From: Gemmatimonadota bacterium
GTDB taxonomy: Bacteria > Gemmatimonadota > Gemmatimonadetes > Palauibacterales > KS3-K002
Direction of reading: 5' to 3'
Assembly: GCA_039586795.1 (NCBI GenBank)
Contig: JBDHJS010000012.1
Span: 1-64,000 of the forward strand
Length of the DNA: 64,000 nt
In this document: positions 1-55,209 of the stretch, one piece after another
Layout of the letters: the number at the start of each line of letters is the position of its first letter
How positions within the stretch are numbered: the first letter of the stretch is position 1
The notes under the pieces: generated by a model
Seen by the model: the letters and a program-made list of their open reading frames with translations, nothing else
Database searches by the model: none
What the model was told of the DNA's origin: nothing
Program-made: the position numbers and the translations under genes

Positions 1-984
1 CCGGGGCATGGTGAGTTCCGCGGTCAGAACCGACCGTCCGGCGCGTTGATCACCTACTCGCTGAACGGCGACGACCTGACGCACCCGAGTGAGGCAACGG
101 CCACGCCGCAGCAGGGCGGGTTTTTCTTCGGCGGTGGCGGCTTCGGGGGCGCTGCGCAGCGGGCCGGTGCCCAACGCCAGCGTGGGCCGCGCGTAGACAT
201 CGAAATCACGGACAGCGATGGTGATGTGATTCGCACGTTCCGCGGGACGACCAACCTTGGCGTCAACCGCGTCACCTGGAATCTTCGCCACGATGGCTTC
301 CGGCGGCCGGGCGGCCAGCAGCAGGGTGGCTTCCGTCCGAGTGGACCGGAAGCGCTGCCGGGTACCTACGGCATCACTGTGAAGTACGGCGACAACGAGG
401 CTACGGGCTCGGTCACCGTGGTTCCCGACCCCCGCTATGACATCCGGATGGCCGATCGTCAGGAGAAGCTCGACGCGATCATGTACGTCGGGGCGTTGGG
501 TGAGGTCCTGACCGACGCGATCGACCGTATCAACGCGACCCAGGGCGAGATCGACCAGGTCCTGCGGTTGGCCCGGGAATCAGCGCCGGCAACTGATGCG
601 ACGAACGGCGGAAGCAATGGCGGGCAGCAGAGGGCCATGGGTGGTAACCGGGAGCTGATGCAGGCGGGTCGCCAGCTGAAGGGTAAGCTGACCGAGGTCG
701 AGAAGATGTTCTGGACGCCGCAGGGGACGTACAAAGGCATCCGGCGCGAGATCACGGCATCGACGGTGCTGGGGTACGTAGGCGGATCGCTGGGGTCGTC
801 GTGGGATGCGCCGACCCAGGCACAGACCATCTATATGACTCATGCGGAGACGATGCTGCAGGAGGCGGTGGGTGCGCTGAACGCGGTCTTCGCGGAGGAT
901 GTGGCGGCGTTCAGGACGATGGCGGCGGATGTCGAGGCGAAGTTCCTCGAGCCGGTAGAACCGCTTTCGCTGCCGCAGCGGTAG
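1..984 (+). CDS. C-terminal part of a BNR/Asp-box (VPS10/sortilin-like) glycosyl hydrolase-family protein; 5' end lies outside the window
   Basis: Frame 1 is open from base 1 (PGHGEFRGQNRPSGALITYSLNGDD) and aligns by eye with the C-terminus of 4121..7441 (PGNGEYRGDNRFGGAMITFSVNGDD ... GPEVLPGTY.VTLKYGDNE ... SSWD.PT ... FAEDVAAFR). Confidence 0.85.
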   Translation, partial: PGHGEFRGQNRPSGALITYSLNGDDLTHPSEATATPQQGGFFFGGGGFGGAAQRAGAQRQRGPRVDIEITDSDGDVIRTFRGTTNLGVNRVTWNLRHDGFRRPGGQQQGGFRPSGPEALPGTYGITVKYGDNEATGSVTVVPDPRYDIRMADRQEKLDAIMYVGALGEVLTDAIDRINATQGEIDQVLRLARESAPATDATNGGSNGGQQRAMGGNRELMQAGRQLKGKLTEVEKMFWTPQGTYKGIRREITASTVLGYVGGSLGSSWDAPTQAQTIYMTHAETMLQEAVGALNAVFAEDVAAFRTMAADVEAKFLEPVEPLSLPQR

Positions 985-40498: not shown

Positions 40499-40598
40499 CC
40501 GCCGACCGACACCTGCTGTTAGTTAGATCCTCCCAGTATGATCACCCCATGAGATTGACCATCCCGAACGACCGGTGCCCGCCGCGGCGTTGGCTATT

Positions 40599-41723
40599 AT
40601 GATGAGCGACATGAACCGACGCGACGGCCTGAAGGCCGAGGTGTTGAGCTACATGCGGCGTGGCATAGACGCACCGAAAGACGAAGACGGTTTCCTTCGG
40701 CTGGCGCTGGCGGTTTTCGAATACCAGTTCACGGAGAATGAGCCCTACCGTCGGTACTGCGAGCGGCGACGCGTGACGCCGGACAAAGTCACCGACTGGC
40801 GGCGAATCCCGGCCGTGCCGACCGCCGCATTCAAAGAAGCGGGCTTGATTTGCGGGGGGACTGACAAGGCCGAAATCGTCTTTCGGACCAGCGGCACCAG
40901 CCAGGGTCGAGAGCGGCGCGGCGCCCACTACGTCCGGGACCTCGAGTTATATGAGGCATCCGCGCTCCCAAACTTCGCCGCGCATCTGCTTCCCGATGGT
41001 GCGCATCTCCGCACGTTGGTGCTGGGCCCTAGCTCGAACCTGGCGCAGGATTCATCGCTGTCCTGGATGCTCGATTTGGTACGGTGCACCTATGGAACGG
41101 CGGGAAGCGCCCACTATGTGGATGAGGAAGGATTGCAGGTCGAACGGCTGTTAGGCGAGCTCGAGGGCTGTGAGAAGCAGGGTCGGCCGGTCATGCTGCT
41201 AGGCACGGCCGCGGCATTCGTTCACGTGCTAGACGCGCTGGAGGCACGCCAGCGAACGCTACGCCTTGCTCCGGGCACCCGCTTGATGGAGACTGGCGGC
41301 ACCAAGGGGATAGATCATGAGATGCGTCGAGATGAGCTTTACCGCGCGTTGACCAGCCGCCTTGGAGTCTCCGGTCTGTACTGCATCGCCGAGTATGGTA
41401 TGACGGAGATGTGCTCGCAGTTCTACGACAACGTTTTGCGCGAGCGGGCGCGAGCTCGACCGGTGTGGAAGCGCTACAAGACGATACCACCGTGGGTACG
41501 CACGCAAGTGGTCGACGCAGAGTCGCTCGAGCCGGTCGACGACGGAAACGTCGGACTTCTGCGCCATCTCGACCTCGCCAATTTCGATTCGGTGATGGCG
41601 ATCTTGACCGAAGATATTGGCGTTACAGGTAACGGTGGTTTCGAGATCCTCGGCCGAGCGGCCGGCGCTGAGTTGCGTGGCTGCTCGTTGGCAATGTCCC
41701 AATGGGTGAAGACGCAAGAATAG
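40599..41723 (+). CDS. LuxE-family acyl-protein synthetase
   Basis: IPAVPTAAFK; FRTSGTS; SSLSWM; METGGTKG; EYGMTEMCSQFY; DLAN; TEDIG; ILGRA.GAELRGCS. Start uncertain (40575, 40599 or 40611). Confidence 0.88.
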   Translation: MMSDMNRRDGLKAEVLSYMRRGIDAPKDEDGFLRLALAVFEYQFTENEPYRRYCERRRVTPDKVTDWRRIPAVPTAAFKEAGLICGGTDKAEIVFRTSGTSQGRERRGAHYVRDLELYEASALPNFAAHLLPDGAHLRTLVLGPSSNLAQDSSLSWMLDLVRCTYGTAGSAHYVDEEGLQVERLLGELEGCEKQGRPVMLLGTAAAFVHVLDALEARQRTLRLAPGTRLMETGGTKGIDHEMRRDELYRALTSRLGVSGLYCIAEYGMTEMCSQFYDNVLRERARARPVWKRYKTIPPWVRTQVVDAESLEPVDDGNVGLLRHLDLANFDSVMAILTEDIGVTGNGGFEILGRAAGAELRGCSLAMSQWVKTQE

Positions 41724-43114
41724 AGTTCTATTGGCCGCCCGAGTGGCCGGGCGGCCCGACGAAGCCCGCGCTCCGGTTCGAAGAGCGAGGATTTGGACCC
41801 GATCGTGTCGTGGGTCGGTTCCCACTGCTCGCGACGGAGAGCCTGACTCAGCTGCTCAGCGCGCTCCGGACTCGTGGCGTCGATACATTGCGCCGCTTCA
41901 CTGTTAGGGAGATCACCGAGGCGATCGAAGCGGCAACGCGCGAGTTGGTCGAGCCCGGTAAACTGCATCGTCAGGAGCTCGTTGAAACGCTTCCTCGACT
42001 TACGGGCTACTCGCCGCGGATGATCGAAATCGGGCTCGAGCGGATGGGCGCCAACTGGACCTCGATCGCGCTCCGCGAAGCGCTCGTCAGGGAGTTCGGT
42101 AGTCTGGAGGTGCTGGATGATTTTCAGCCGTGCGGTCAGGGCCGGCACCAGAAAGCCTTCGGCCCCGGGCTCACCGTCCACATCTTTAGCGGCAATATTC
42201 CCGGCGTGGCGGTGACCAGTCTGATCCGGGCTCTCTGTGTGAAGTCGCCGAGTTTTGGAAAAACGGCGGCAGGAGAACCGTATTCAGCCGTGTGCTTCGC
42301 TAGAGCATTGGCGAGCGTGAGCGCGGACCTGGCGAGTTGTCTTGCGGTTACCTATTGGCCGGGCGGATCGAAGGAATTGGAACGTGCTGCTTTCGCCGCC
42401 GCCGATGCGGTCGTTGCTTACGGGAGCGACGATACCATAGATGAGATTAGCGGTCTCGTACCGTCACATTGTCGGCTTCTCCGGTACCCGAACCGCTTCG
42501 GAGTTGCGGTCATCTCGGGGAAGGCTCTGTCGGAAGGGAGCCCGGCGGAGCTAGCTCTGGCCGTCGCGAAAGATGTCTCGACTTTCGATCAGCAGGGATG
42601 TGTGTCGCCTCATGCCGTGTTCGTCGAAGAGGGAGGAGATGTATCCGCCGTCGACTTCGGCAGGCTGCTGGCCGATGCGATGGAAAGTGTGGCGAAAGAG
42701 GTACCGCGAGGAGCGGCGCGTGTGGAGGAATCGTCTCTCATCCACCAGGTTCGGGGCCAGGCAGAGATGCGTGGCGCCGAGGTGATCACCAGCCACAAGG
42801 GGACAGAGTGGACGGTGATCGTGGAGCGCCGCGACCGGTTCGAGCCGTCGCCGCTCAATCGAGTGATTCACGTCACGGCTGTCGGTGAACTGAACGAAGC
42901 GCTGACCGCTCTGGAGAGCGTGGGCCGCCATCTGCAAACCGTGGCTATCGGCGCGGTGCCGGGGGAAATCGAGGCGCTGGCGGAAAGGCTCGGTTCCATA
43001 GGGGCCACTCGGCTGGTGCCGGTGGGAGAAGCCGCCTGGCCAGCGGCGGACTGGCGTCACGACGGTCGCTACCAGTTTGCCGATCTGGTTCGCTTCGTCG
43101 ATCTCGAAATATAG
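41702..43114 (+). CDS. LuxC-family acyl-CoA reductase
   Basis: HIFSGNIP; YWPGG; VVAYGSD; FDQQGCVSPH with the catalytic Cys; HLQTV; WRHDG. Confidence 0.88.
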   Translation: MGEDARIEFYWPPEWPGGPTKPALRFEERGFGPDRVVGRFPLLATESLTQLLSALRTRGVDTLRRFTVREITEAIEAATRELVEPGKLHRQELVETLPRLTGYSPRMIEIGLERMGANWTSIALREALVREFGSLEVLDDFQPCGQGRHQKAFGPGLTVHIFSGNIPGVAVTSLIRALCVKSPSFGKTAAGEPYSAVCFARALASVSADLASCLAVTYWPGGSKELERAAFAAADAVVAYGSDDTIDEISGLVPSHCRLLRYPNRFGVAVISGKALSEGSPAELALAVAKDVSTFDQQGCVSPHAVFVEEGGDVSAVDFGRLLADAMESVAKEVPRGAARVEESSLIHQVRGQAEMRGAEVITSHKGTEWTVIVERRDRFEPSPLNRVIHVTAVGELNEALTALESVGRHLQTVAIGAVPGEIEALAERLGSIGATRLVPVGEAAWPAADWRHDGRYQFADLVRFVDLEI

Positions 43115-46157: not shown

Positions 46158-47873
46158 TCAGTGTCTTAGAGCAACCACCGAGTATCCGTTCGCGCCGCCC
46201 TCCCAGCGCAGTGCCAGCACAGCCGGACGGCCCACGCGCTCTCCGTTTCGCCAGGCCTCCACCGTCATCGTCGCCGTGTACTCCGAATAGGTCACACCAG
46301 CCAGATCTTCTCTGAGCCCATCGAGGCCAACGCGTAGGGTCTGCCGCGCGCCGTTAATCGCATCGCTGTCCCCGCTGAGCTCGATTCCTTGATAGGTGTC
46401 TTGTAGCTCCCAGCTGTAGCGGGTTTGTCCCGGCGTCCACACGCCAGCATCCAGGCCGAGATCATCGAACGTCAACTCCAGGAATGGCGCGTCCGATCCG
46501 ACGACCCTGACGACCGGCCTCTCGAGCGGCGTCACCTCACCGTACCAATACGCAATGATCTTGTCGCGGCGCCCGATCAGCAGCGTCGTAAGAATCTCTT
46601 CCGGCTCGGCTGACGGTAGGCCGCCCGTACGCACTGCGGCACGGATGTGATCGTCGCTGAACTTCGCGATGATCTTTGCGCCCCAGTAGCCGTCCGCTGG
46701 TGTCTTGAGGTTGAATGCCTTGTTAGGCCAGTTGGCGTTCCAGGTGCCAGGATCGAAGCTCTCGGACTGGAACCATCCGATAGACGAGTGATACTGGGAG
46801 AACTCGACGTCTTCCCAGCCCCTCTTGTAGAAGCCAAGGGTCATGATGCGCCCCAGCGATGGCCACAACGCGAAATTGTATTCACTCCCTTCGCGCGGGT
46901 TGTGTGAGCGAATGGTCCCGCTACCCAACGACGCGGCGAAGTCGATCAGGTAGTGACGGACGAAGCCCGGTGGATCGATGAACGCGTCGAGAGTATTCGC
47001 GTACCGCATGTCGACATGATTGAGCCAGGACGACACGACGTACAGGCCGCGGAGCTCGCGGCGGTATTCGTGATGGTAATAGTCGTTCGGATCATCACCG
47101 CGAACACCCGAGAAGTAGAAAGGTCCGATAGGTTCACCGGGGACAAACTTGCTGGCCAGAGCTAGATAGCGACCGCCTGAAAGAGTGTCCGTGAGGAAGA
47201 GGATGTCTTTGATGTCCTCCTCCGTCATCGTGCGCTCAACCCCCGAGACTGTGATCTCGGCGCTGGGATCCAGCACCAGCCGTGCCGAATCGAATACCAC
47301 GATATAGTCCTCGGGAGTGTGGTATCCGGCGGCGTAAAATAGCCGATTGGCAATCACACCCGCCGCGCTGGCGAGGTGCTGGTTGCCCCTGGGGTCGAAC
47401 TTGAAAAGGTAGCGGTCACCGCGCGCATCCTGGATGGTAAAACCGGGCGAGATGCCCGCGGCTTTCCCCCCTATGACCCGGAGCTCGCGAGCAGTGTCGG
47501 GTCCGACGGTCGTCGGCCCGCGAGCGACGTCCTCGGGCGTCATGTTCCCGAGATCGATTCGGTGCTCGTACCAGGCGGAGTTCAGAACGTCGTCGAAGCG
47601 AGTGATGTTCAGCGCCTCGTGGTCCTTACCGACCCAGCGACGCAGGCTGAGCCCGTAGCCTAGCTCGCCTCCCACCGATACGGTGAGTAGCCGTTTGACT
47701 TCGTTGATTTCCCGGTTGCCGGGGCGAGCGCTGGGCAATGTGTCCGCATAAGCGATCGGCTCGAGGGGGAGCGGGCTTGTGGTCTTTGTAGAGCCGCACG
47801 CCGTCAAGATGACTGCGCCGACGGCCAGTACCAGTCGACCCGGGTGGCGGTGACCGCGACGTACGTTCCCCAT
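46158..47873 (-). CDS. Lipoprotein with an atypical kinase-like fold
   Basis: Lipobox ILTAC; KAAGISP; YLFKFD; WLNHVDMRYAN; YLIDFAASLG. The ATG overlaps the Omp85 stop (TGATG). Confidence 0.7.
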   Translation of the reverse strand: MGNVRRGHRHPGRLVLAVGAVILTACGSTKTTSPLPLEPIAYADTLPSARPGNREINEVKRLLTVSVGGELGYGLSLRRWVGKDHEALNITRFDDVLNSAWYEHRIDLGNMTPEDVARGPTTVGPDTARELRVIGGKAAGISPGFTIQDARGDRYLFKFDPRGNQHLASAAGVIANRLFYAAGYHTPEDYIVVFDSARLVLDPSAEITVSGVERTMTEEDIKDILFLTDTLSGGRYLALASKFVPGEPIGPFYFSGVRGDDPNDYYHHEYRRELRGLYVVSSWLNHVDMRYANTLDAFIDPPGFVRHYLIDFAASLGSGTIRSHNPREGSEYNFALWPSLGRIMTLGFYKRGWEDVEFSQYHSSIGWFQSESFDPGTWNANWPNKAFNLKTPADGYWGAKIIAKFSDDHIRAAVRTGGLPSAEPEEILTTLLIGRRDKIIAYWYGEVTPLERPVVRVVGSDAPFLELTFDDLGLDAGVWTPGQTRYSWELQDTYQGIELSGDSDAINGARQTLRVGLDGLREDLAGVTYSEYTATMTVEAWRNGERVGRPAVLALRWEGGANGYSVVALRH

Positions 47874-49189
47874 CAGAAGGCCGTCCCGAAGGACACGCGG
47901 AGCCGGAAGCCTTCGTTGCCGAACGCGATGTAGTTGACCAGCGCACCTCCCTGGAGTGTAGACAGACTCCAACCGAAGCCGATACTCCGTCGCATGCCTT
48001 TGAGTTGAATCTCAAACACACGCGGCGCGATAGAGCCAGAGTCGTAGAAGACAAAGGCTTCAACGCGTGACCTTTCGTGAAGCTCGCGCCAGATCTCCCA
48101 CCTCCATTCGAGCATGAACGCGGCCATCGCCTGGTCTCGGAAGCGAAGCTGGTGATACGCGCGACCGCCTTGCTCGCTTCCCACGGTAGCCAGGTAGTAG
48201 AAGGGTACGCCTTCGCCACCCAGGCTCGTGTTCGATTCCATCGTTAGCCGAAACGCCAGCTGCTGCCGCGGGTTCAAAGGCATGTAGCCAAACAGATTAG
48301 CAGATGCACGTCCGAAATCGGAATCCGTTTCATCTATGCCGCCGAAGTATTCATAGCCGGCTTCTATATAAAGGCCGCGTGGCTGCAGACCGCGGGTGTA
48401 TGTAAGGTCGAGGCCGACTGATCCTCCTACACGGACGTACTTCACCCGCTCGTTCACCCCATAGAGCTGGGAGGATCGAGGGTCGTCCTGAATTGTCGGC
48501 ACTTTCTTCGACTTGCCGCGGCCGATGCTGTTGTCCTCCCACGCCAGCTTGCCTGAAACGACGAGTGTCGCGGCCCGATCGACCGGCCGACGGGCCGATC
48601 CAGTCAGCGAGATGGTCCACTGATCCCAGAGAAAGTTGACCCGCTCGTCCTCTCTGGTGTCCAGACCGATGCCGTAGAAGTAGGGCTGGGCGTTCCGCCA
48701 GAACGTGGCCGCGGCTTCCAGCGTTCGACCGTTTGATCCCTGCCACAGGAAACCCGCTCGGTAGCGCTGCGAGAGCCGAATTGAAAACGCGCCTTCGACG
48801 AAGAACGGCCGTAGGCCTTCATAGCCAAGACGCACGGATACGCCGCTGCGCGGACCGATCGTGCCGAAACCTCCCCTTACACCGGCGGCCTTGAGCGTTT
48901 CGACGATCGGGATCGGTTTGGGGTCCGGCTTGACGACAAAGCCGGCTAGCTCGGCGAACCCGAGGCCCAGAAGTCGCAAAGGCAGAATGATGATCTTGAA
49001 GGGAAGGGCGACCGCGTCGACTGCATCGAAAGGTGGTTTCGCCGGTGGACGTTGGAGTGTATCGCGGATTGAATCTGCTACGGCCGGCTTGATTGGCCCA
49101 TCATTCTGCTGAGCTTGAGCTGAGCTGATCGGGACGAGAAAGCTCGCCAGGACGATTGCAGCCACCCATATCCCGGGTGTGCCAATCAA
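47873..49189 (-). CDS. Omp85/BamA-TamA-family outer-membrane barrel with no obvious POTRA domains
   Basis: Signal peptide; YFYGIG; VPFYYLATVGS..GRAYHQLRFRD (variant of the RGY loop); FYDSG; C-terminal F. Confidence 0.8.
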   Translation of the reverse strand: MIGTPGIWVAAIVLASFLVPISSAQAQQNDGPIKPAVADSIRDTLQRPPAKPPFDAVDAVALPFKIIILPLRLLGLGFAELAGFVVKPDPKPIPIVETLKAAGVRGGFGTIGPRSGVSVRLGYEGLRPFFVEGAFSIRLSQRYRAGFLWQGSNGRTLEAAATFWRNAQPYFYGIGLDTREDERVNFLWDQWTISLTGSARRPVDRAATLVVSGKLAWEDNSIGRGKSKKVPTIQDDPRSSQLYGVNERVKYVRVGGSVGLDLTYTRGLQPRGLYIEAGYEYFGGIDETDSDFGRASANLFGYMPLNPRQQLAFRLTMESNTSLGGEGVPFYYLATVGSEQGGRAYHQLRFRDQAMAAFMLEWRWEIWRELHERSRVEAFVFYDSGSIAPRVFEIQLKGMRRSIGFGWSLSTLQGGALVNYIAFGNEGFRLRVSFGTAF

Positions 49190-51459
49190 TCCTTGTCTCC
49201 CTTGTCCTCAAGGAGGTCCTTCAACGCTTCCCTGTGTGTCGCGTCACCGAACAGCGTCGCGCCGGTCTTCATGAGGTCCGACACGACATCGTCGAGGGGT
49301 CTCAGCGATTTCTCACGCTGATACTCGCTTACGTCACCGATGAACGGCCAGAGTCTCTTTCGCACGTCGGCTGGCAAAGCTTGCTCGAGGTACTCTAGAG
49401 AGAAGCTCTTCAGGTTTTCATCGTCGAGCATCACGCCATTGAACGCGGCCCGCGCAACCTCCGGCTCCATGACCAGGCTCAAGAGACGGAACGTATGTTC
49501 GAGGCTCAGCTCTCCGCGCACGCCGACTCGCTCGGCGACCAGCTCATCTTTCTCGGCAGCATCCAGTAGTTTCTGCATCTCCCAGACAGCGCGGCCTCTG
49601 CCGATTTCGGCGCGCACCGCTTCCCAGATCACCGCGTCACTCCAACGCGGCGATCGGGGCATATCATGTCGGCGGCGACGTACGATGGCGATGGCGGCAC
49701 GGTAGCGCACCTCGAAACGGTTGGCTGCCAGCGCATCGATCAGCGCGTCGTCTGCTTCCTCGCCTCCCATTCGCCCGAGCACCCTTGGAATTCTGCGGCG
49801 AATGACGAAGTCGGTGTGCTCGCTACGAAGCAGCTTCGCCAAGTGTGGAACAGCGATCTCGCCAGCGTCGAGCAAGGAGACGATTGTGCGGTCGACAAGC
49901 TGATCACGGGCGAGCAAACGCGTCAGCGGCGCGACGTGCTCTTCTTGCCAGTCGGTGCCGATATCGAGGACTTGGTTCAGCGCCTTCAGGTCCCCGGACA
50001 TCAGCGTCGCCTTGATCGCATCGGCGGCCATGGGTCTCTCGGCGCTTACAGGCGCTTGATCAGCCTCCGTCTCTTGGGTTAGAGCGCCCTCACGGACCAG
50101 TGAGCGAACATCGATGCGGGTAAACGTTCCGCTCAAAAGATCCCTGCTCTCGAGTCGCGCACCAGAGTCTTTGGCCTGTACTCGCGTCCCGCTTTCCTGC
50201 AACTGTTCGGTTACGGTTGCGAAGTACTGACTTCCCATCCTTCGACTGAGGTAGACCAGGGCTAAAGAGAACGCGATGATGAACAGGGAAAGGAAGCGCG
50301 AATGGAGACCGAGCAACGTGACCACTCCGAACACGATGCCAGCACCGAGACCTTCGCCGACCGAATCAACCACCGAATCGATGAACGTCTTCGTCTTTCG
50401 ACGAACGATCGACGGGATCGGGACGTAGACCACCTCTAGTGCGGAGCGATACAGCGACTTTCGGAGCGCTGCGTCGGCTCCGCGGACGGCTGTGATCAGG
50501 AACAGACTGGGGGCGACCAGCATACCGACAGAGCCCGTCAGGAGCACTGCTGGCAGCACTGCAAGAGTCCAGGCGATGCCGGCAAGCGCGAGGAAACGGG
50601 ATACGAGCAGCAGTTGGATCACCAACGACACGCCACCTACCCAGCCGTAGAAGGCGCCGAAGAAGCTCGCCATTCCTTCCTGCGTGGTGAAGCTGTTCTG
50701 GGCGAACTCCTTGAATTGATAGTCGAGTAAGGTCGTGGCTATCGCGACGGCGAACACGATCGCGGCCAGCGTCCGTAGATGTGGTGTGTCCCAGGTCAAC
50801 TTGAGGCTCTCGGGAATCGATGTCCTCGCTTTGTCGTCACCTTCGTGTCCGGCGCCTGTAAGCGGAGGAAGCAGACTCTGCGCAATGAAGAACAGTCCGA
50901 TGATCGCGATGAGGAGAATGACCAACCAAGGGAGATCGAGTCGCCGCGTCAGCCAGACCAGCGAATTGCCCGTCACCATTGTACCCGCTGTGCCACCGGC
51001 GCCGATCAACCCGAATAGACGCTTGGCACCACGTACGGCGAAGTACTCGGAGATCACCACCCAAAATCCAGAAGTGAGGAGTAGGGTTCCGAGCGCCGTC
51101 AACAAATAGAACGCAACGACTTCTGCTCCCGGCACATTGCTGCGACCGAGGAACGGCCAGATAAGCGCGAGCCCAGCGGAGAGCGCGATCTGAACTGCCA
51201 TCACGACCTTGCGTGGCGAGTAGCGCAAGAGCAGCCGCGCAAACAGCCCCACGGTCGGTACGCTGATGACCGCCACGGCCGCGATGATGTATGGGAGCGT
51301 CTTTACGTCGTAGGCAGTAAGGTAAAGCGCCTCGCGCATCGCCCGTGCCAGGATGGCGAAGCTCATGACAAGAAAGGCGCCCCAAAACGCGAGCGTCACG
51401 TTGCGAACTTCGTTCGGGCGTACGTCGAGCCAGGCGGAAAGTCGCTGGAGCACGGTCAC
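49186..51459 (-). CDS. NTT/TLC-family (ATP/ADP translocase-like) MFS carrier fused to HEAT repeats
   Basis: LDVRPNE; REALYL; FW....F..R.AKRLFGLIGAGG; LLDYQFK; FFG.FY; R.KTK.FID; C-terminal HEAT repeats (VIRRRIPRVL, RFEVRYRAA). Confidence 0.8.
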   Translation of the reverse strand: MTVLQRLSAWLDVRPNEVRNVTLAFWGAFLVMSFAILARAMREALYLTAYDVKTLPYIIAAVAVISVPTVGLFARLLLRYSPRKVVMAVQIALSAGLALIWPFLGRSNVPGAEVVAFYLLTALGTLLLTSGFWVVISEYFAVRGAKRLFGLIGAGGTAGTMVTGNSLVWLTRRLDLPWLVILLIAIIGLFFIAQSLLPPLTGAGHEGDDKARTSIPESLKLTWDTPHLRTLAAIVFAVAIATTLLDYQFKEFAQNSFTTQEGMASFFGAFYGWVGGVSLVIQLLLVSRFLALAGIAWTLAVLPAVLLTGSVGMLVAPSLFLITAVRGADAALRKSLYRSALEVVYVPIPSIVRRKTKTFIDSVVDSVGEGLGAGIVFGVVTLLGLHSRFLSLFIIAFSLALVYLSRRMGSQYFATVTEQLQESGTRVQAKDSGARLESRDLLSGTFTRIDVRSLVREGALTQETEADQAPVSAERPMAADAIKATLMSGDLKALNQVLDIGTDWQEEHVAPLTRLLARDQLVDRTIVSLLDAGEIAVPHLAKLLRSEHTDFVIRRRIPRVLGRMGGEEADDALIDALAANRFEVRYRAAIAIVRRRRHDMPRSPRWSDAVIWEAVRAEIGRGRAVWEMQKLLDAAEKDELVAERVGVRGELSLEHTFRLLSLVMEPEVARAAFNGVMLDDENLKSFSLEYLEQALPADVRKRLWPFIGDVSEYQREKSLRPLDDVVSDLMKTGATLFGDATHREALKDLLEDKGDKD

Positions 51460-51645: not shown

Positions 51646-53319
51646 TTAGATGGAGGGCCCCAAGGGAGACGCCGACGGATTAGACGCACTCAAGGGGGTC
51701 TCTTCCTCAGGCCGGATTTCGGGCTCGGGAAACATGCACTGGTCATCCTGGGCCTGCGACTCCACGATGCCATGAAGGTCCCACCACTCTTCGGCTCGAT
51801 CGCTATTCCAGGCATTGGCTACCGGTACCGCCTCGAGCGCGAGGCGCATCTGTCGAGCGGTCTGAAAACGGTCTCCCGGCTTCTTTTCGAGACACTTCAT
51901 CACGATTTCTTCCAACGCCGGCGGAACGGCGGTCTCGGTCACTTCGGACAACGGTTTAGGGGCGGTCTTAACATGGTCGACCACAACCTCCAGACTCGAT
52001 TCTGAGACGAAGGGCGGTCGACCGGCTAGCATCCAGTAGGCGACGCCGCCAAGACAGTAGAGGTCGGCTCGCCCGTCCACCTGCTCCGTCCCGTACACGG
52101 TCTCGGGTGCCAGGAACCGCGGGGTCCCGAACAAGATGCCTGTCTTGGTCACTGCGGCTGCCGTGTCAGCACCGATCTGTTTGGCCAGACCGAAGTCGAG
52201 AACCTTGACGAAATCATACAGCCCGCCACGCCGAGTCAGAAAGATGTTGGATGGCTTGATATCGCGATGAATGATATTGCGGTCGTGGGCTTCGCTCAGA
52301 GAGCCGCATACCTGTCTCAGGATGTAGATTGTCCGAGCTGGCGAAACGGGCCCGTACGTGTCCACCAGCTTCTGGAGATCCAAGCCCAACAGGTACTCCA
52401 TTGCATAATAGAGACCGTAGTCTGGCGTGCGACCGACGTCGTAGATCGTGATCGTGTTCGGGTGCGTCAGCGTCGCCGACAGCTTCACCTCACGTTCGAA
52501 ACGGGCCAGTGCCGTGTGACTCCCATCTTCTGCTGCGGTCATCACCTTTACGGCCGTCGGTCGACACATCAGCGCGTGTTGAGCAAAGTACACCACCCCC
52601 ATTCCGCCCTTGCCGATCTCGTCATGGATGATGTACTTGCCCAGCCTCCTCGCTCGGTGCGCGGTCTTCGTCAGGTTGTAAAGCGTGTGGCTCACGAACG
52701 CCGAGGCACCGCCCAGCATCGCGATTCCGATCAGTCCCCAGATCATATTGTCGCGCGCAGCGTCAGCACCGCCCAGCTTCGCCCAGAAGGCCTGATACTC
52801 AGGCAGGGCGGAATAAAGCGTGCCGTGGAGCAGCAGATAGAAAACCGCCGCCAGCGCGGCCAGCGACCACTGATGGGACGGCCGCCAGGGAACGAACGCT
52901 GCCGTGAGAAACAGCAGCAACGACACCCCAAGGTCGGGCTGGCCGGCAGGATTGAATGCACCCTGGTTGTAGATGACGAGCAGAATGTTGAACGCGATCG
53001 TACCAAAGGCGATGGTGTGCAGAAACCGATAGCTGCTCCTACAGACCGAATAGAGCAAGCCGAGAGCGATCGCGAAGGATATGGTGTGTGCCAATGCACC
53101 GGTCAGCCACCGGTAACCATCGAGCGTGCTTCCTAGCTCGAGACTCTGCTGTGGGAAGAGAACATTCAAGATCAGAGCGATCGAAGCGATCACCAGGCCG
53201 CTGATGAAGAGCAGGCGGCAACGCTCCCACAGCAATCGCAGTCGTTCGTCTTCGAAGGAGCCGGAAGTCGAGAAGGGCCCGGATAGCGCGCGCTCAATGA
53301 CCTGACTGGGCGTGGCCAT
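51646..53319 (-). CDS. Hanks-type Ser/Thr kinase with a multi-TM N-terminal sensor
   Basis: About 6 TM, then IGKGGMGVVY, AVK, RFERE, HRDIKPSN, DFG, GTPRFLAPE. Confidence 0.93.
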   Translation of the reverse strand: MATPSQVIERALSGPFSTSGSFEDERLRLLWERCRLLFISGLVIASIALILNVLFPQQSLELGSTLDGYRWLTGALAHTISFAIALGLLYSVCRSSYRFLHTIAFGTIAFNILLVIYNQGAFNPAGQPDLGVSLLLFLTAAFVPWRPSHQWSLAALAAVFYLLLHGTLYSALPEYQAFWAKLGGADAARDNMIWGLIGIAMLGGASAFVSHTLYNLTKTAHRARRLGKYIIHDEIGKGGMGVVYFAQHALMCRPTAVKVMTAAEDGSHTALARFEREVKLSATLTHPNTITIYDVGRTPDYGLYYAMEYLLGLDLQKLVDTYGPVSPARTIYILRQVCGSLSEAHDRNIIHRDIKPSNIFLTRRGGLYDFVKVLDFGLAKQIGADTAAAVTKTGILFGTPRFLAPETVYGTEQVDGRADLYCLGGVAYWMLAGRPPFVSESSLEVVVDHVKTAPKPLSEVTETAVPPALEEIVMKCLEKKPGDRFQTARQMRLALEAVPVANAWNSDRAEEWWDLHGIVESQAQDDQCMFPEPEIRPEEETPLSASNPSASPLGPSI

Positions 53320-53365
53320 TCTTGTTATCTCGGTGCAGATGCAATTCCCAGCACGGCGGTCCGCT

Positions 53366-55006
53366 CTACGGTTCGTAGATGAACTGGGACAATCCTCGGT
53401 TCGACATGCCGTCGTCGTCTACCGATGGGGCTGCCGGCGGACCTTCCGTCGCCAACCCGTGCAGCTCCCACCATTCGTGGGCTCGTTTCTGTGACCACCG
53501 CTCCGAGAACGGGATGCCTTTCAGCGCCTCCTCCAGTTCGGCCGCCGACTGGAAGCGTTTCTCCGGCTCCTTTTCCAGGCAGCGCATGATGGCGCTCTCC
53601 AAATCGGGATGTACGGGGAGCTCGGTGACGCTGGACGGACGAGTCGGGATGGCCTTCATGTGGTCGATGAGCAACTCGACGGAAGACGTGGAGTCGAACA
53701 CGGGGCGGCCGGTGGTGATGAAATACATGACCGCACCGAGGCAGTAAATGTCGGATCGTCCGTCGACTTCCAGCCCCTGAACTGCTTCCGGCGAAATGTA
53801 TCGCGGCGTGCCCACGGCCATCCCGGTCTTGGTCAGGCTCACGGCCTCGGGGGCGGTAACCTGCTTGGCCAGCCCGAAGTCCAGGACCTTTACGTAGTCG
53901 AACAGGCCGCCCCGGTGAGTCAAGTAGATGTTGCCCGGCTTGATATCGCGGTGGATGATCCCTCGCTCGTGGGCTTCGCTGAGCGCGCTGCACGCTTGGG
54001 CGATGACGTACGCCGTGCGCTCGGAGCTTATCGGTCCGAAGCGATCCACCAGTTCCTGCAGGTCGAGGCCGTCGAGGAACTCCATCACATAGTAGAACTT
54101 GTTGTCGGGAGTATGGCCGAAATCGTAGATCGTGATGGTGTTTGGGTGCGTCAGCGTCGCCGATAGCTGAACCTCGCGCTCGAAGCGTCGGATCGCTGAT
54201 GCCTCCTCCTCGCCGGACGCTTGCATCACCTTGACCGCGGTCGGGCGACGGATCAGGGAGTGCCGGGCACGAAACACCTGGCCCATGCCTCCACTTCCCA
54301 GTTCTTCCTCGACCACGTAGTTGCCGAGTCGACTGGCCTCGTGGGTCTTCACGCGCAGGCGGTACAAGGTCCGGCTCGCGACATAGGCAACGAATCCGAG
54401 CATCATGATGCCCGTCGTTCCCACTATGATATGATTGCGCAACGCCGCCAGTTCGCTGATCCCGATGACGCCACCAACGTCCGACCAGAACGTTCGGGCA
54501 TCGGGGACAAGGATATACGTAACGGTCGCCGATACAACGAACGCGGCGACGGCCAGGACTCCCAGCATGACAGGGTAGTGAGCGGGCGACGGGATGAAGA
54601 CTGCGTAGATGAACAGCGCCAGGGCCGCAGCCAGGTAAGGCTCCTCCGCGGTCGCGGTCGAGGCAAGCATGAACGTGCTGATTACGAGGGCCGAGGCGAT
54701 GATCCAGAACGCCAGCTGCTGCAGCTGGCGTGCACTGCCCTGCAGCAACCACGTCAGGCCGAGCCCGACGAGAAAGATCGCGATCTGAGCCAGGCGGATC
54801 TTGGGTTCGTGGACGGTCAGGCCAGCATCTGGCAGCGTCGCGGGTATCTGCAGGAAACGATCGAACAGGAAGTTGCCGGCAACCAGCAGCAGGACGATCA
54901 CGAGCGCCAGGCGCGTCCTGTACAACAACAGGTCGCGCAGCTCTTTGTCGAACGAACTGCTGGTCAGCACCGACTCCGGGGTCGCGACTGCGAAATTGGT
55001 GTTCAT
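53366..55006 (-). CDS. Hanks-type Ser/Thr kinase with a multi-TM N-terminal sensor (paralogue)
   Basis: LGSGGMGQVF, AVK, HRDIKPGN, DFG, GTPRYISPE. Confidence 0.93.
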   Translation of the reverse strand: MNTNFAVATPESVLTSSSFDKELRDLLLYRTRLALVIVLLLVAGNFLFDRFLQIPATLPDAGLTVHEPKIRLAQIAIFLVGLGLTWLLQGSARQLQQLAFWIIASALVISTFMLASTATAEEPYLAAALALFIYAVFIPSPAHYPVMLGVLAVAAFVVSATVTYILVPDARTFWSDVGGVIGISELAALRNHIIVGTTGIMMLGFVAYVASRTLYRLRVKTHEASRLGNYVVEEELGSGGMGQVFRARHSLIRRPTAVKVMQASGEEEASAIRRFEREVQLSATLTHPNTITIYDFGHTPDNKFYYVMEFLDGLDLQELVDRFGPISSERTAYVIAQACSALSEAHERGIIHRDIKPGNIYLTHRGGLFDYVKVLDFGLAKQVTAPEAVSLTKTGMAVGTPRYISPEAVQGLEVDGRSDIYCLGAVMYFITTGRPVFDSTSSVELLIDHMKAIPTRPSSVTELPVHPDLESAIMRCLEKEPEKRFQSAAELEEALKGIPFSERWSQKRAHEWWELHGLATEGPPAAPSVDDDGMSNRGLSQFIYEP

Positions 55007-55209
55007 TTGCTGCGAATATAGCGAACGGCGTCAACGCTCGCACAGAGCCGGGGGAAGTCGAGGACATGCGGTCGCGCTTCGCTTTGCCACAGCGTAAGTT
55101 GTCAGGCACAATCACAACGTTGCAGACGTTCTCACCAGCAAGGCACAGCGGCCGACTCGTGAGACGATCCAGGTCTCACAGAGTCACAAAGTGACCAACC
55201 AGGTTAGGA

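Follow-up and report, generated by a model that had tools for sequence, protein, structure and literature searches.

How might an enzyme that needs ATP work in a bacterial envelope? Textbooks describe a Gram-negative periplasm that contains no ATP, and account for envelope machines by the ways in which they do without this nucleotide. The question is raised here by three minus-strand open reading frames (ORFs) in a 64,000-nucleotide stretch of Gemmatimonadota DNA (contig JBDHJS010000012.1, positions 1 to 64,000; the whole stretch is called the window). They encode, in this order, a carrier of the ATP/ADP-translocase family (NTT/TLC) with a HEAT-repeat tail, an outer-membrane barrel of the Omp85 family and a lipoprotein with a kinase-like fold, the stop codon of each gene overlapping the start of the next. 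The source genome has a size of 4.68 Mb and is 97.8% complete, and DNA of the organism is present in sediment metagenomes. The original prediction for this locus was that the carrier supplies nucleotide to an envelope kinase that is displayed by or docked on the Omp85 protein.

The answer reached here is graded. As a predicted heterodimer, the barrel and the lipoprotein are a conserved and undescribed outer-membrane complex, and this holds even if ATP export is wrong. The full chain, a periplasm-facing kinase docked on Omp85 and fed with ATP by the carrier, is a tentative reading to which we give slightly less than an even chance; within it, we infer catalysis, ATP export, the substrate and the regulation, and the complex and its orientation are predicted by structure models. 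No published account of this module was found in the full-text literature, a search that left subscription journals and supplements outside.

The kinase-fold lipoprotein and its Omp85 barrel

According to its AlphaFold2 (AF2) model (pLDDT 87.4, pTM 0.87), the lipoprotein is a bilobal protein with an atypical protein-kinase-like (PKL) fold. Alignment of the model with VIA-align gave the highest score with CtkA (Z 13.6 over 228 residues, root-mean-square deviation 3.9), followed by Hydra Fam20 (12.5), PI4KIIα (12.2), CotH (11.9), Fam20C (11.5), actin-fragmin kinase (11.2), HipT (10.7), HipA (10.4) and MavQ (10.0). Only atypical kinases matched at Z 10-13.6, over residues about 115-450, and unrelated immunoglobulin (Ig)-like structures scored about 8. 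Foldseek, the comparison with HipA-, CotH- and PI3K-like kinases that had been suggested from the outset, agrees with these alignments and bears out the kinase fold, as CtkA was retrieved at E 5e-4 with a probability of 1.00 and the same kinase families at probabilities of 0.98-1.00.

The motifs that had been read as kinase-like are present, namely K158 (YLFKF), D288-x-R290-x-x-N293 (NHVDMRYANT) and D311-F312 (LIDF). Judged from the order of strands and helices in the AF2 model, K158 lies at the end of strand beta3, past a glycine-rich turn (137-145), D288 and N293 follow helix alphaE (272-283), and D311-F312 follow strands 294-299 and 304-309. K158, D288, N293 and D311 are invariant in 40/40 close relatives and are kept in 96, 94, 93 and 95, respectively, of 99 diverse representatives, whose identity to the window lipoprotein is 28-48%. 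G313 is found in 73/99 of the latter, giving a literal DFG in most of the family, and the alphaC acid in 87/99 (E in 71, D in 16), with G at this position in 6. In the clade of the window, which has Gly172 there, the other catalytic-type residues are still invariant.

The lipoprotein belongs to a large family that carries no name. It has no Pfam or NCBIfam match at E <= 0.1, hence no membership in CotH (PF08757), Fam20C (PF06702), HipA or PI3_PI4_kinase; as a single sequence it matched no chain of the PDB at E <= 10, and a profile of the 99 sequences retrieved only two weak Ig-like matches there (E 0.2 and 1). The ESM Atlas returned unnamed clusters, with leads to Fam20C, HipA_2 and LepB_N at 0.77-0.80 only. 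A word-index search in which 8000 candidates were scored gave 906 relatives, an exhaustive search gave 2435 cluster representatives at E <= 1e-3 (661 at E <= 1e-30), and a search started from a distant member gave 4915 relatives at E <= 1e-20. Among the matches listed, family members are called 'hypothetical' or are unnamed and have no precomputed Pfam domain. No cultured host was found among the 120 best relatives of the distant member or among the 80 loci described below, all of which come from metagenome-assembled or single-cell genomes.

The protein is predicted to be exported and lipidated, since it begins with a signal peptide and a lipobox. The reading frame is open from 47972 (46158-47972), and its start is most plausibly the ATG at 47873, which yields an N-terminus typical of lipoproteins, ending in L-T-A-C26. 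From this ATG the sequence reads MGNVRRGHRHPGRLVLAVGAVILTAC, with the lipobox L-T-A-C and Cys26; up to the cysteine that would be lipidated, by sequence pattern, it is MGNVRRGHRHPGRLVLAVGAVILTA-C26. The lipobox cysteine is kept in at least 90% of the 40 close relatives and in 62/99 diverse relatives.

Although the lipoprotein falls into the same fold class as Fam20C (the Golgi casein kinase), CotH and CtkA (Z 11.5-13.6), it has no sequence similarity to them even with the 99-sequence profile. It would differ from them in being lipid-anchored and docked on Omp85, and it has an Ig-like C-terminal domain and extra invariant features (DDPND...H.(H/Y)RRELRG, D394/W397 and R435). With HipA/HipT, PI4KIIα and MavQ it shares the fold (Z 10-12.2) and an H/N-x-D-x-x-x-x-N loop followed by I-D-F, but these proteins are cytoplasmic or host-directed whereas the lipoprotein is predicted to be exported. 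Unlike members of HipA and PI3_PI4_kinase, it lacks the Pfam match, and it has no antitoxin or DNA-binding partner.

The second protein of the pair was originally called a barrel-only Omp85, and this description stands, with the addition of a helical N-terminal extension. It scores 24.8 bits with Pfam Omp85 (cut-off 24), its AF2 model (pLDDT 89.0, pTM 0.78) shows 16 strands, all within residues 104-434, and Foldseek returned BamA/TamA barrels at E 1.3e-10 (probability 1.00) among 118 matches at E <= 0.001. A POTRA domain, that is a beta-alpha-alpha-beta-beta unit, is absent from the model, in which no strand lies ahead of residue 104. Between strands 11 and 12 stands R343-A344-Y345, which we take to be the counterpart of the Omp85 loop-6 motif (V/I)RG(Y/F); of 37 barrel relatives, 25 have R at the first of these positions, 26 have G and 11 have A at the second, and 35 have Y or F at the third. 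The extension contains a conserved ADSIR....PP segment. The modelled protein combines a helical N-terminal extension with an Omp85 barrel of 16 strands and is POTRA-less. It resembles BamA and TamA in its 16 strands, in the RG(Y/F)-type motif of loop 6 and in its predicted periplasmic lipoprotein partner, and it differs from them in that POTRA domains are missing and the helical extension (residues 35-101) would be the docking site instead. We know of no lipoprotein of the BAM or TAM machineries that has a kinase fold, unlike that of the window.

The two genes stay together over large distances. One genome per species was scanned, 429 relatives of the lipoprotein were confirmed and the best 80 loci were kept (numbered with L below); they come from Gemmatimonadota, Zixibacteria, Latescibacterota, KSB1, Krumholzibacteriia, Acidobacteriota, Ignavibacteria, Marinimicrobia, Poribacteria and others. 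An Omp85-like ORF ends at most 400 nt from the lipoprotein start in 63 of the 67 loci whose upstream room is 1400 nt or more, in at least eight phyla, and the expected synteny of barrel and lipoprotein is in this way confirmed. Four loci miss it: in L053 the barrel adjoins a split lipoprotein gene, and in L062, L080 and L081, all of Latescibacterota, histidine-kinase genes stand in the place of the barrel (scan of L062 and L080). Tandem arrangements (barrel-lipoprotein-barrel-lipoprotein) occur in L040, L068 (4878-11028) and L078, which argues that the pair duplicates as a unit.

In L062 and L080, two 7TMR-DISM histidine-kinase genes precede the kinase-fold gene, and farther upstream L062 has an NTT-HEAT gene, a cyclic nucleotide monophosphate (cNMP)-binding gene and a response regulator.

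When the barrel and the lipoprotein were modelled together, three runs gave ipSAE values of 0.74, 0.73 and 0.73, which express model confidence rather than a measurement, and the best of three controls gave 0.00. In calibration, 116/157 solved complexes and 2/215 mismatched pairs reached this ipSAE mark, a guide that is rough here, where our own alignments were used. The partner pLDDT was 86, and at least 90% of the contacts agree between runs. The interface comprises residues 32-79 (the extension), 308-309, 362-371 and 378-380 of the barrel and residues 36-90, 257-270 (the DDPND segment), 302, 321-348, 354 and 381 of the lipoprotein. The N-terminus of Omp85 proteins is periplasmic. Because the interface residues of the barrel are in its N-terminal part and in the turns after strands 10 and 12, the lipoprotein would sit beneath the barrel, on the periplasmic side. 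Barrel and lipoprotein are thus predicted to bind as a heterodimer at the periplasmic face. Of the two arrangements first proposed, docking is therefore the one that the model supports, and display is not.

Carriers and phosphatases beside the pair

The first gene product scores 46.9 bits with the Pfam TLC model (PF03219; cut-off 21) over residues 116-312, a match that spans only profile positions 150-367 of 491; in the whole-genome search the score was 36.5 bits, also above the cut-off. Residues 114-418 align in phmmer with solved ADP,ATP carriers (9j3n, E 2.3e-8; 9j3j, which is AtNTT1, E 9.2e-7), and the signature NTT motifs AKR..FG.G and Y.P....K.K.K..ID align between the window carrier and both. 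By Pfam and by these two motifs, it is of the same family as AtNTT1 and the chlamydial and rickettsial Npt1/Tlc proteins. A crude hydropathy scan placed 11-12 transmembrane segments in residues 20-405, with a loop rich in K and R at 329-366, and showed residues 398-757 as a soluble tail. In this tail HEAT_2 reached 26.7 bits, just below its cut-off of 27.7 (E 7e-6, residues 535-592), and phmmer against solved structures matched residues 505-594 to alphaRep proteins, which are designed HEAT-type proteins (E 1.9e-9); related carriers at other loci have HEAT scores of 65-89 bits. An ATP/ADP-translocase-family carrier with HEAT repeats, as had been read from the window, is what these matches describe. 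The tail is probably cytoplasmic, because both termini are usually inside in the carrier superfamily. Pfam found no cNMP_binding domain in the window carrier or its neighbours.

Fusions of this type (NTT-HEAT) were described, in the part of the account available, as monophyletic, widespread in free-living bacteria and uncharacterised, with a sub-clade in which a cNMP-binding domain is fused to the carrier or adjacent to it (Major et al. 2017, PMC5381601). Like them, the window carrier has an N-terminal TLC/NTT domain followed by HEAT repeats, and the fused or adjacent cNMP-binding domain (cNBD) is found as well in its relatives at other loci; the window carrier differs in having no cNBD and two Ser/Thr kinase genes ahead of it. 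Neighbours of the Omp85, kinase-fold or phosphatase type are not mentioned in that part of the account (PMC5381601).

Directly upstream of the barrel, the carrier gene was found in 9 of the 55 loci with room for it, all of them close relatives of the window. Elsewhere it takes other places: convergent and downstream, as an NTT-HEAT gene fused to cNMP_binding (L018, L045-L047), directly downstream (L058, L073), past a histidine kinase (L067), or downstream past a phosphatase gene (L056, L060, L074). L056, L060 and, up to the end of its contig, L074 have operons of the form [histidine kinase]-[PAP2]-Omp85-lipoprotein-Metallophos-NTT-NTT-HEAT-cNBD-response regulator, and L068 has a related order with the phosphatase between two carriers. 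An adjacent cNMP-binding gene is found in L056, L060, L062 and L067. Altogether, carrier-holding loci belong to Gemmatimonadota, Zixibacteria, Ignavibacteria, Latescibacterota, Krumholzibacteriia and Acidobacteriota and show at least five gene orders.

The phosphatase is a second recurrent partner, which the original prediction, partly supported as a whole, had missed. It is purple-acid-phosphatase-like (Metallophos and Metallophos_C in Pfam) and has a lipobox of its own in the two sequences read, as expected of an exported lipoprotein. Among the 80 loci, many of which are truncated, a carrier gene is present in 24, a Metallophos gene in 22 and either of them in 41; when only the 33 loci flanked by 5 kb or more in each direction are counted, the figures are 13, 7 and 18. 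Two protein queries did not find the purple-acid-phosphatase-like gene in the window genome, the Metallophos family model not having been applied. Two Zixibacteria loci also have the gene of a PAP2-family phosphatase immediately before the barrel (L056:5407-6405, L074:5662-6609), a third phospho-related envelope enzyme.

Co-occurrence was counted in 251 Gemmatimonadota genomes, among which the lipoprotein is patchy (19/251 genomes, 15/106 genera). The Pfam TLC model found carriers in 9/19 lipoprotein-positive and 23/232 other genomes; it was rejected as insensitive, a carrier profile being positive in 5/5 genomes that TLC had missed. With the profile that replaced it (A4, E <= 1e-30), carriers were present in 19/19 lipoprotein-positive genomes, in 112/232 lipoprotein-negative genomes and in 131/251 overall, counts in which kin are not independent and to which no P value is attached. 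Carrier and lipoprotein lie at most 7 kb apart on one contig in 6/19 genomes. The lipoprotein never occurs without the carrier and the reverse is common, which fits a dependent user of a general supply line; to a degree the same pattern is compatible with chance, the background being 52%.

The window genome has two further TLC-type carriers. One, of 447 aa (TLC 5.8e-8; contig C94, locus L087:3530-7344), comes directly after two genes of the NAD-dependent epimerase/dehydratase family, one with a sub-cut-off match to a TAT signal (E 5e-4), and this locus may be another case of an exported nucleotide-cofactor enzyme beside an NTT-type carrier. The other, of 489 aa (profile A4, E 2.4e-108; contig C31, L086:7013-8482), has glyoxalase-family, beta-CASP RNase, TPR and cytochrome-c-like genes as neighbours and no barrel or kinase-fold gene near.

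Gene layout, upstream kinases and expression

Coordinates of the genes and of their parts are collected in Table 1. The ORF list and the bases at both junctions confirm the overlapping stop and start codons that had been reported for the three genes: the carrier stop TGA (49188-49186) lies within TTGA (49189-49186) and overlaps the TTG start of the barrel (49189-49187), and the barrel stop TGA (47875-47873) has one A in common with the ATG of the lipoprotein (TGATG, 47875-47871). A convergent NlpC/P60 gene ends 10 nt beyond the lipoprotein stop. A promoter scan returned 2 promoter-like sites where 2.2 would be expected. Between the three genes nothing resembling a terminator was found, apart from a weak match that falls within the carrier gene, at its 5' end.

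Table 1. Features of the carrier-barrel-lipoprotein locus and of the kinase genes upstream of it (window positions, or residues of the protein where stated)
Feature	Position	Strand	Details
Ser/Thr kinase gene 2, paralogue of gene 1	53366-55006	-	546 aa; Pfam Pkinase 2e-47
Ser/Thr kinase gene 1	51646-53319	-	557 aa; kinase domain 230-487; Pfam Pkinase 1.4e-43
NTT/TLC carrier with HEAT tail	49186-51459	-	757 aa; GTG start
Carrier membrane domain	50230-51459	-	about residues 1-410
Carrier HEAT region	49540-49971	-	about residues 497-640
Omp85 barrel	47873-49189	-	438 aa; TTG start
Barrel signal peptide/helix	residues 1-27	-	AF2 model
Barrel N-terminal extension	48881-49108	-	residues 28-103; helices 35-44, 56-86, 94-101
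Kinase-fold lipoprotein	46158-47873	-	571 aa; ATG start
Lipoprotein docking segment (predicted), conserved, N-terminal	residues 36-90	-	
Lipoprotein kinase-like core	46524-47531	-	residues about 115-450
Lipoprotein C-terminal Ig/FnIII-like sandwich	residues about 445-566	-	Z about 8

Ser/Thr kinase gene 1, a possible regulator, ends 186 nt before the start of the carrier. Its orthologue is found directly upstream of the carrier in L003, L004, L005, L009, L010, L011, L015 and L041 only, and a second kinase ORF accompanies it in seven of these eight loci, L015 being excepted; conservation at eight close loci could be mere shared ancestry. Both kinases have about 230 N-terminal residues without a Pfam family before the kinase domain. 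An ORF at 53325-55115 (596 aa) was rejected as a gene, as it has no family and is a high-GC wrong-frame shadow over kinase gene 2.

Two RNA-library runs from different studies contain contigs identical to parts of the barrel gene (X19, 48727-48877; X20, 48651-48877 and 48948-49119), and a contig of X19 also falls within kinase gene 1 (51667-52038). These contigs give a weak hint of expression, their strand being unseen and carry-over of DNA possible.

Elsewhere in the window (40575-43114), genes for a LuxE-like acyl-protein synthetase and a LuxC-like acyl-CoA reductase adjoin each other (Pfam 3e-24 and 1.4e-76), followed by genes for an EamA transporter and a class-V aminotransferase.

A candidate system for phosphorylation in the periplasm

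In the reading that we prefer, the lipoprotein would be anchored in the inner leaflet of the outer membrane and docked on the periplasmic face of its dedicated barrel, through the helical N-terminal extension of the barrel and two periplasmic turns. It would most likely be an active ATP-dependent phosphotransferase with a substrate in the envelope, whether protein, lipid or glycan; a lipid target stays possible because of the hints from PI4KII, MavQ and PAP2. The NTT-HEAT carrier of the inner membrane would export ATP and return ADP (with Pi), along the cell's own gradient, and the exported ATP would feed the lipoprotein in a compartment otherwise free of it. The cytoplasmic HEAT tail could be the regulatory handle, held by Ser/Thr kinases in this organism and by cNMP-binding or two-component proteins in other phyla. 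Extended to a regulated periplasmic phosphorylation in many free-living diderm bacteria of at least eight phyla, with ATP export by HEAT/cNMP-gated NTT carriers, an Omp85-docked kinase and reversal by the phosphatase, the proposal becomes rather doubtful.

Several observations weigh against this reading, and one group of them concerns the carrier. To our knowledge, nucleotide export has never been demonstrated for the NTT family. By its sequence the window carrier is of a distant NTT subfamily and is not a canonical exchanger: with TIGR00769, the NCBIfam model of canonical NTP/NDP exchangers, it reaches 44.3 bits where the cut-off is 387.2, and it has an extra HEAT tail of 350 residues. Canonical translocases bring ATP into an energy-poor compartment, whereas the proposed direction here is out of the cytoplasm. 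Carriers are far commoner than the lipoprotein (131 versus 19 of 251 genomes) and must accordingly have other jobs, and the count of genomes is one of relatives. A carrier is absent from 20 of the 33 well-flanked loci, and carrier and phosphatase are both absent from 15; bare pairs adjoin housekeeping genes (Lon, aminotransferase, LytB). The synteny of carrier and pair that was originally expected is to this extent only partly upheld: the carrier is a recurrent neighbour and is present in every lipoprotein-positive genome, but its place directly upstream is confined to the clade of the window and 15/33 loci are bare. The predicted complex, for its part, is a matter of model confidence.

Another group concerns catalysis. 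The window lipoprotein and its clade have Gly172 at the alphaC position, so that the window lipoprotein lacks the Lys-Glu pair found in active kinases. The residues kept in 99/99 relatives (D261, D264, H268, R271, R272, R275, G317, D394, W397 and R435) form the signature DDPND...H.(H/Y)RRELRG, which is outside the classic catalytic set, and segment 257-270 falls within the predicted interface with the barrel. Because this invariant set is non-catalytic and partly at the interface, conservation possibly reflects docking more than catalysis. The same observations, together with the 15 bare loci, would suit a lipoprotein that is a structural component or pseudo-kinase and serves a specialised Omp85 machine as a non-catalytic accessory, in the way that BamB-E serve BamA. 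Such a machine would insert or secrete a client, the fold would serve for binding only, and the carriers would be unrelated or merely co-regulated; Omp85 proteins typically have lipoprotein partners, as is known from BAM. Pseudokinases, however, usually lose the catalytic Lys, Asp, Asn and Asp residues, and K158, D288, N293 and D311 are kept in 93-96/99 relatives at 28-48% identity. Moreover, carriers are repeatedly neighbours of the pair, in at least five orders and at least six phyla, and are found in 19/19 positive genomes, and the exported phosphatase as second partner suggests reversible phospho-chemistry. We regard this alternative as unlikely.

The transport direction could also be the reverse. 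Characterised NTTs are importers or exchangers that serve uptake, according to the part of the account available (PMC5381601), and the carriers might import external nucleotides while the phosphatase and the lipoprotein bind or process nucleotides or organophosphates on their way in. The same clusters contain a purple-acid-phosphatase-like lipoprotein and in some cases a PAP2 phosphatase, which would agree with this, as would the commonness of the carrier relative to the lipoprotein, which is expected of a general uptake system, and the presence of the organism's DNA in sediment metagenomes, where extracellular nucleotides exist. Scavenging would leave unexplained a kinase fold with intact Lys, Asp, Asn and Asp, which needs a phosphate donor; a closed Omp85-type barrel is no known solute channel; and the window genome, 97.8% complete, has the three-gene unit and yielded no phosphatase to the two queries. 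It appears to us distinctly improbable. Lastly, the Omp85 protein might be a dedicated translocator (Slam-like or two-partner-like) which secretes the lipoprotein kinase or displays it at the surface, with external targets; of this, display was part of the original prediction. The idea draws on CtkA, a secreted Helicobacter kinase, as the best structural match and on a barrel that is dedicated and adjacent in 63/67 loci. Yet the predicted interface, which on the barrel side involves the N-terminal extension and the turns that follow strands 10 and 12, is periplasmic in the usual Omp85 orientation, the barrel lacks the POTRA or TPR domain that known translocators use, and an enzyme at the surface would be poorly served by an ATP carrier in the inner membrane; we consider it very unlikely.

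The proposed periplasmic phosphotransferase fed by the carrier would have a parallel in eukaryotes, where the lumen of the endoplasmic reticulum and Golgi has an ATP supply through a membrane transporter. The Fam20C system of the Golgi shares the logic of a kinase outside the cytosol combined with a nucleotide exchanger in the membrane, and the system proposed here would, if true, be its bacterial counterpart, built from unrelated parts. An exported kinase fold accompanied by relatives of ATP/ADP exchangers, and widespread, would then challenge the view of the periplasm as free of ATP. It would also provide a testable and first function for the NTT-HEAT family, uncharacterised since 2017, a new family of several thousand kinase-fold proteins that have no Pfam model, and a new use of a POTRA-less Omp85 barrel, that of a platform on which an enzyme is docked.

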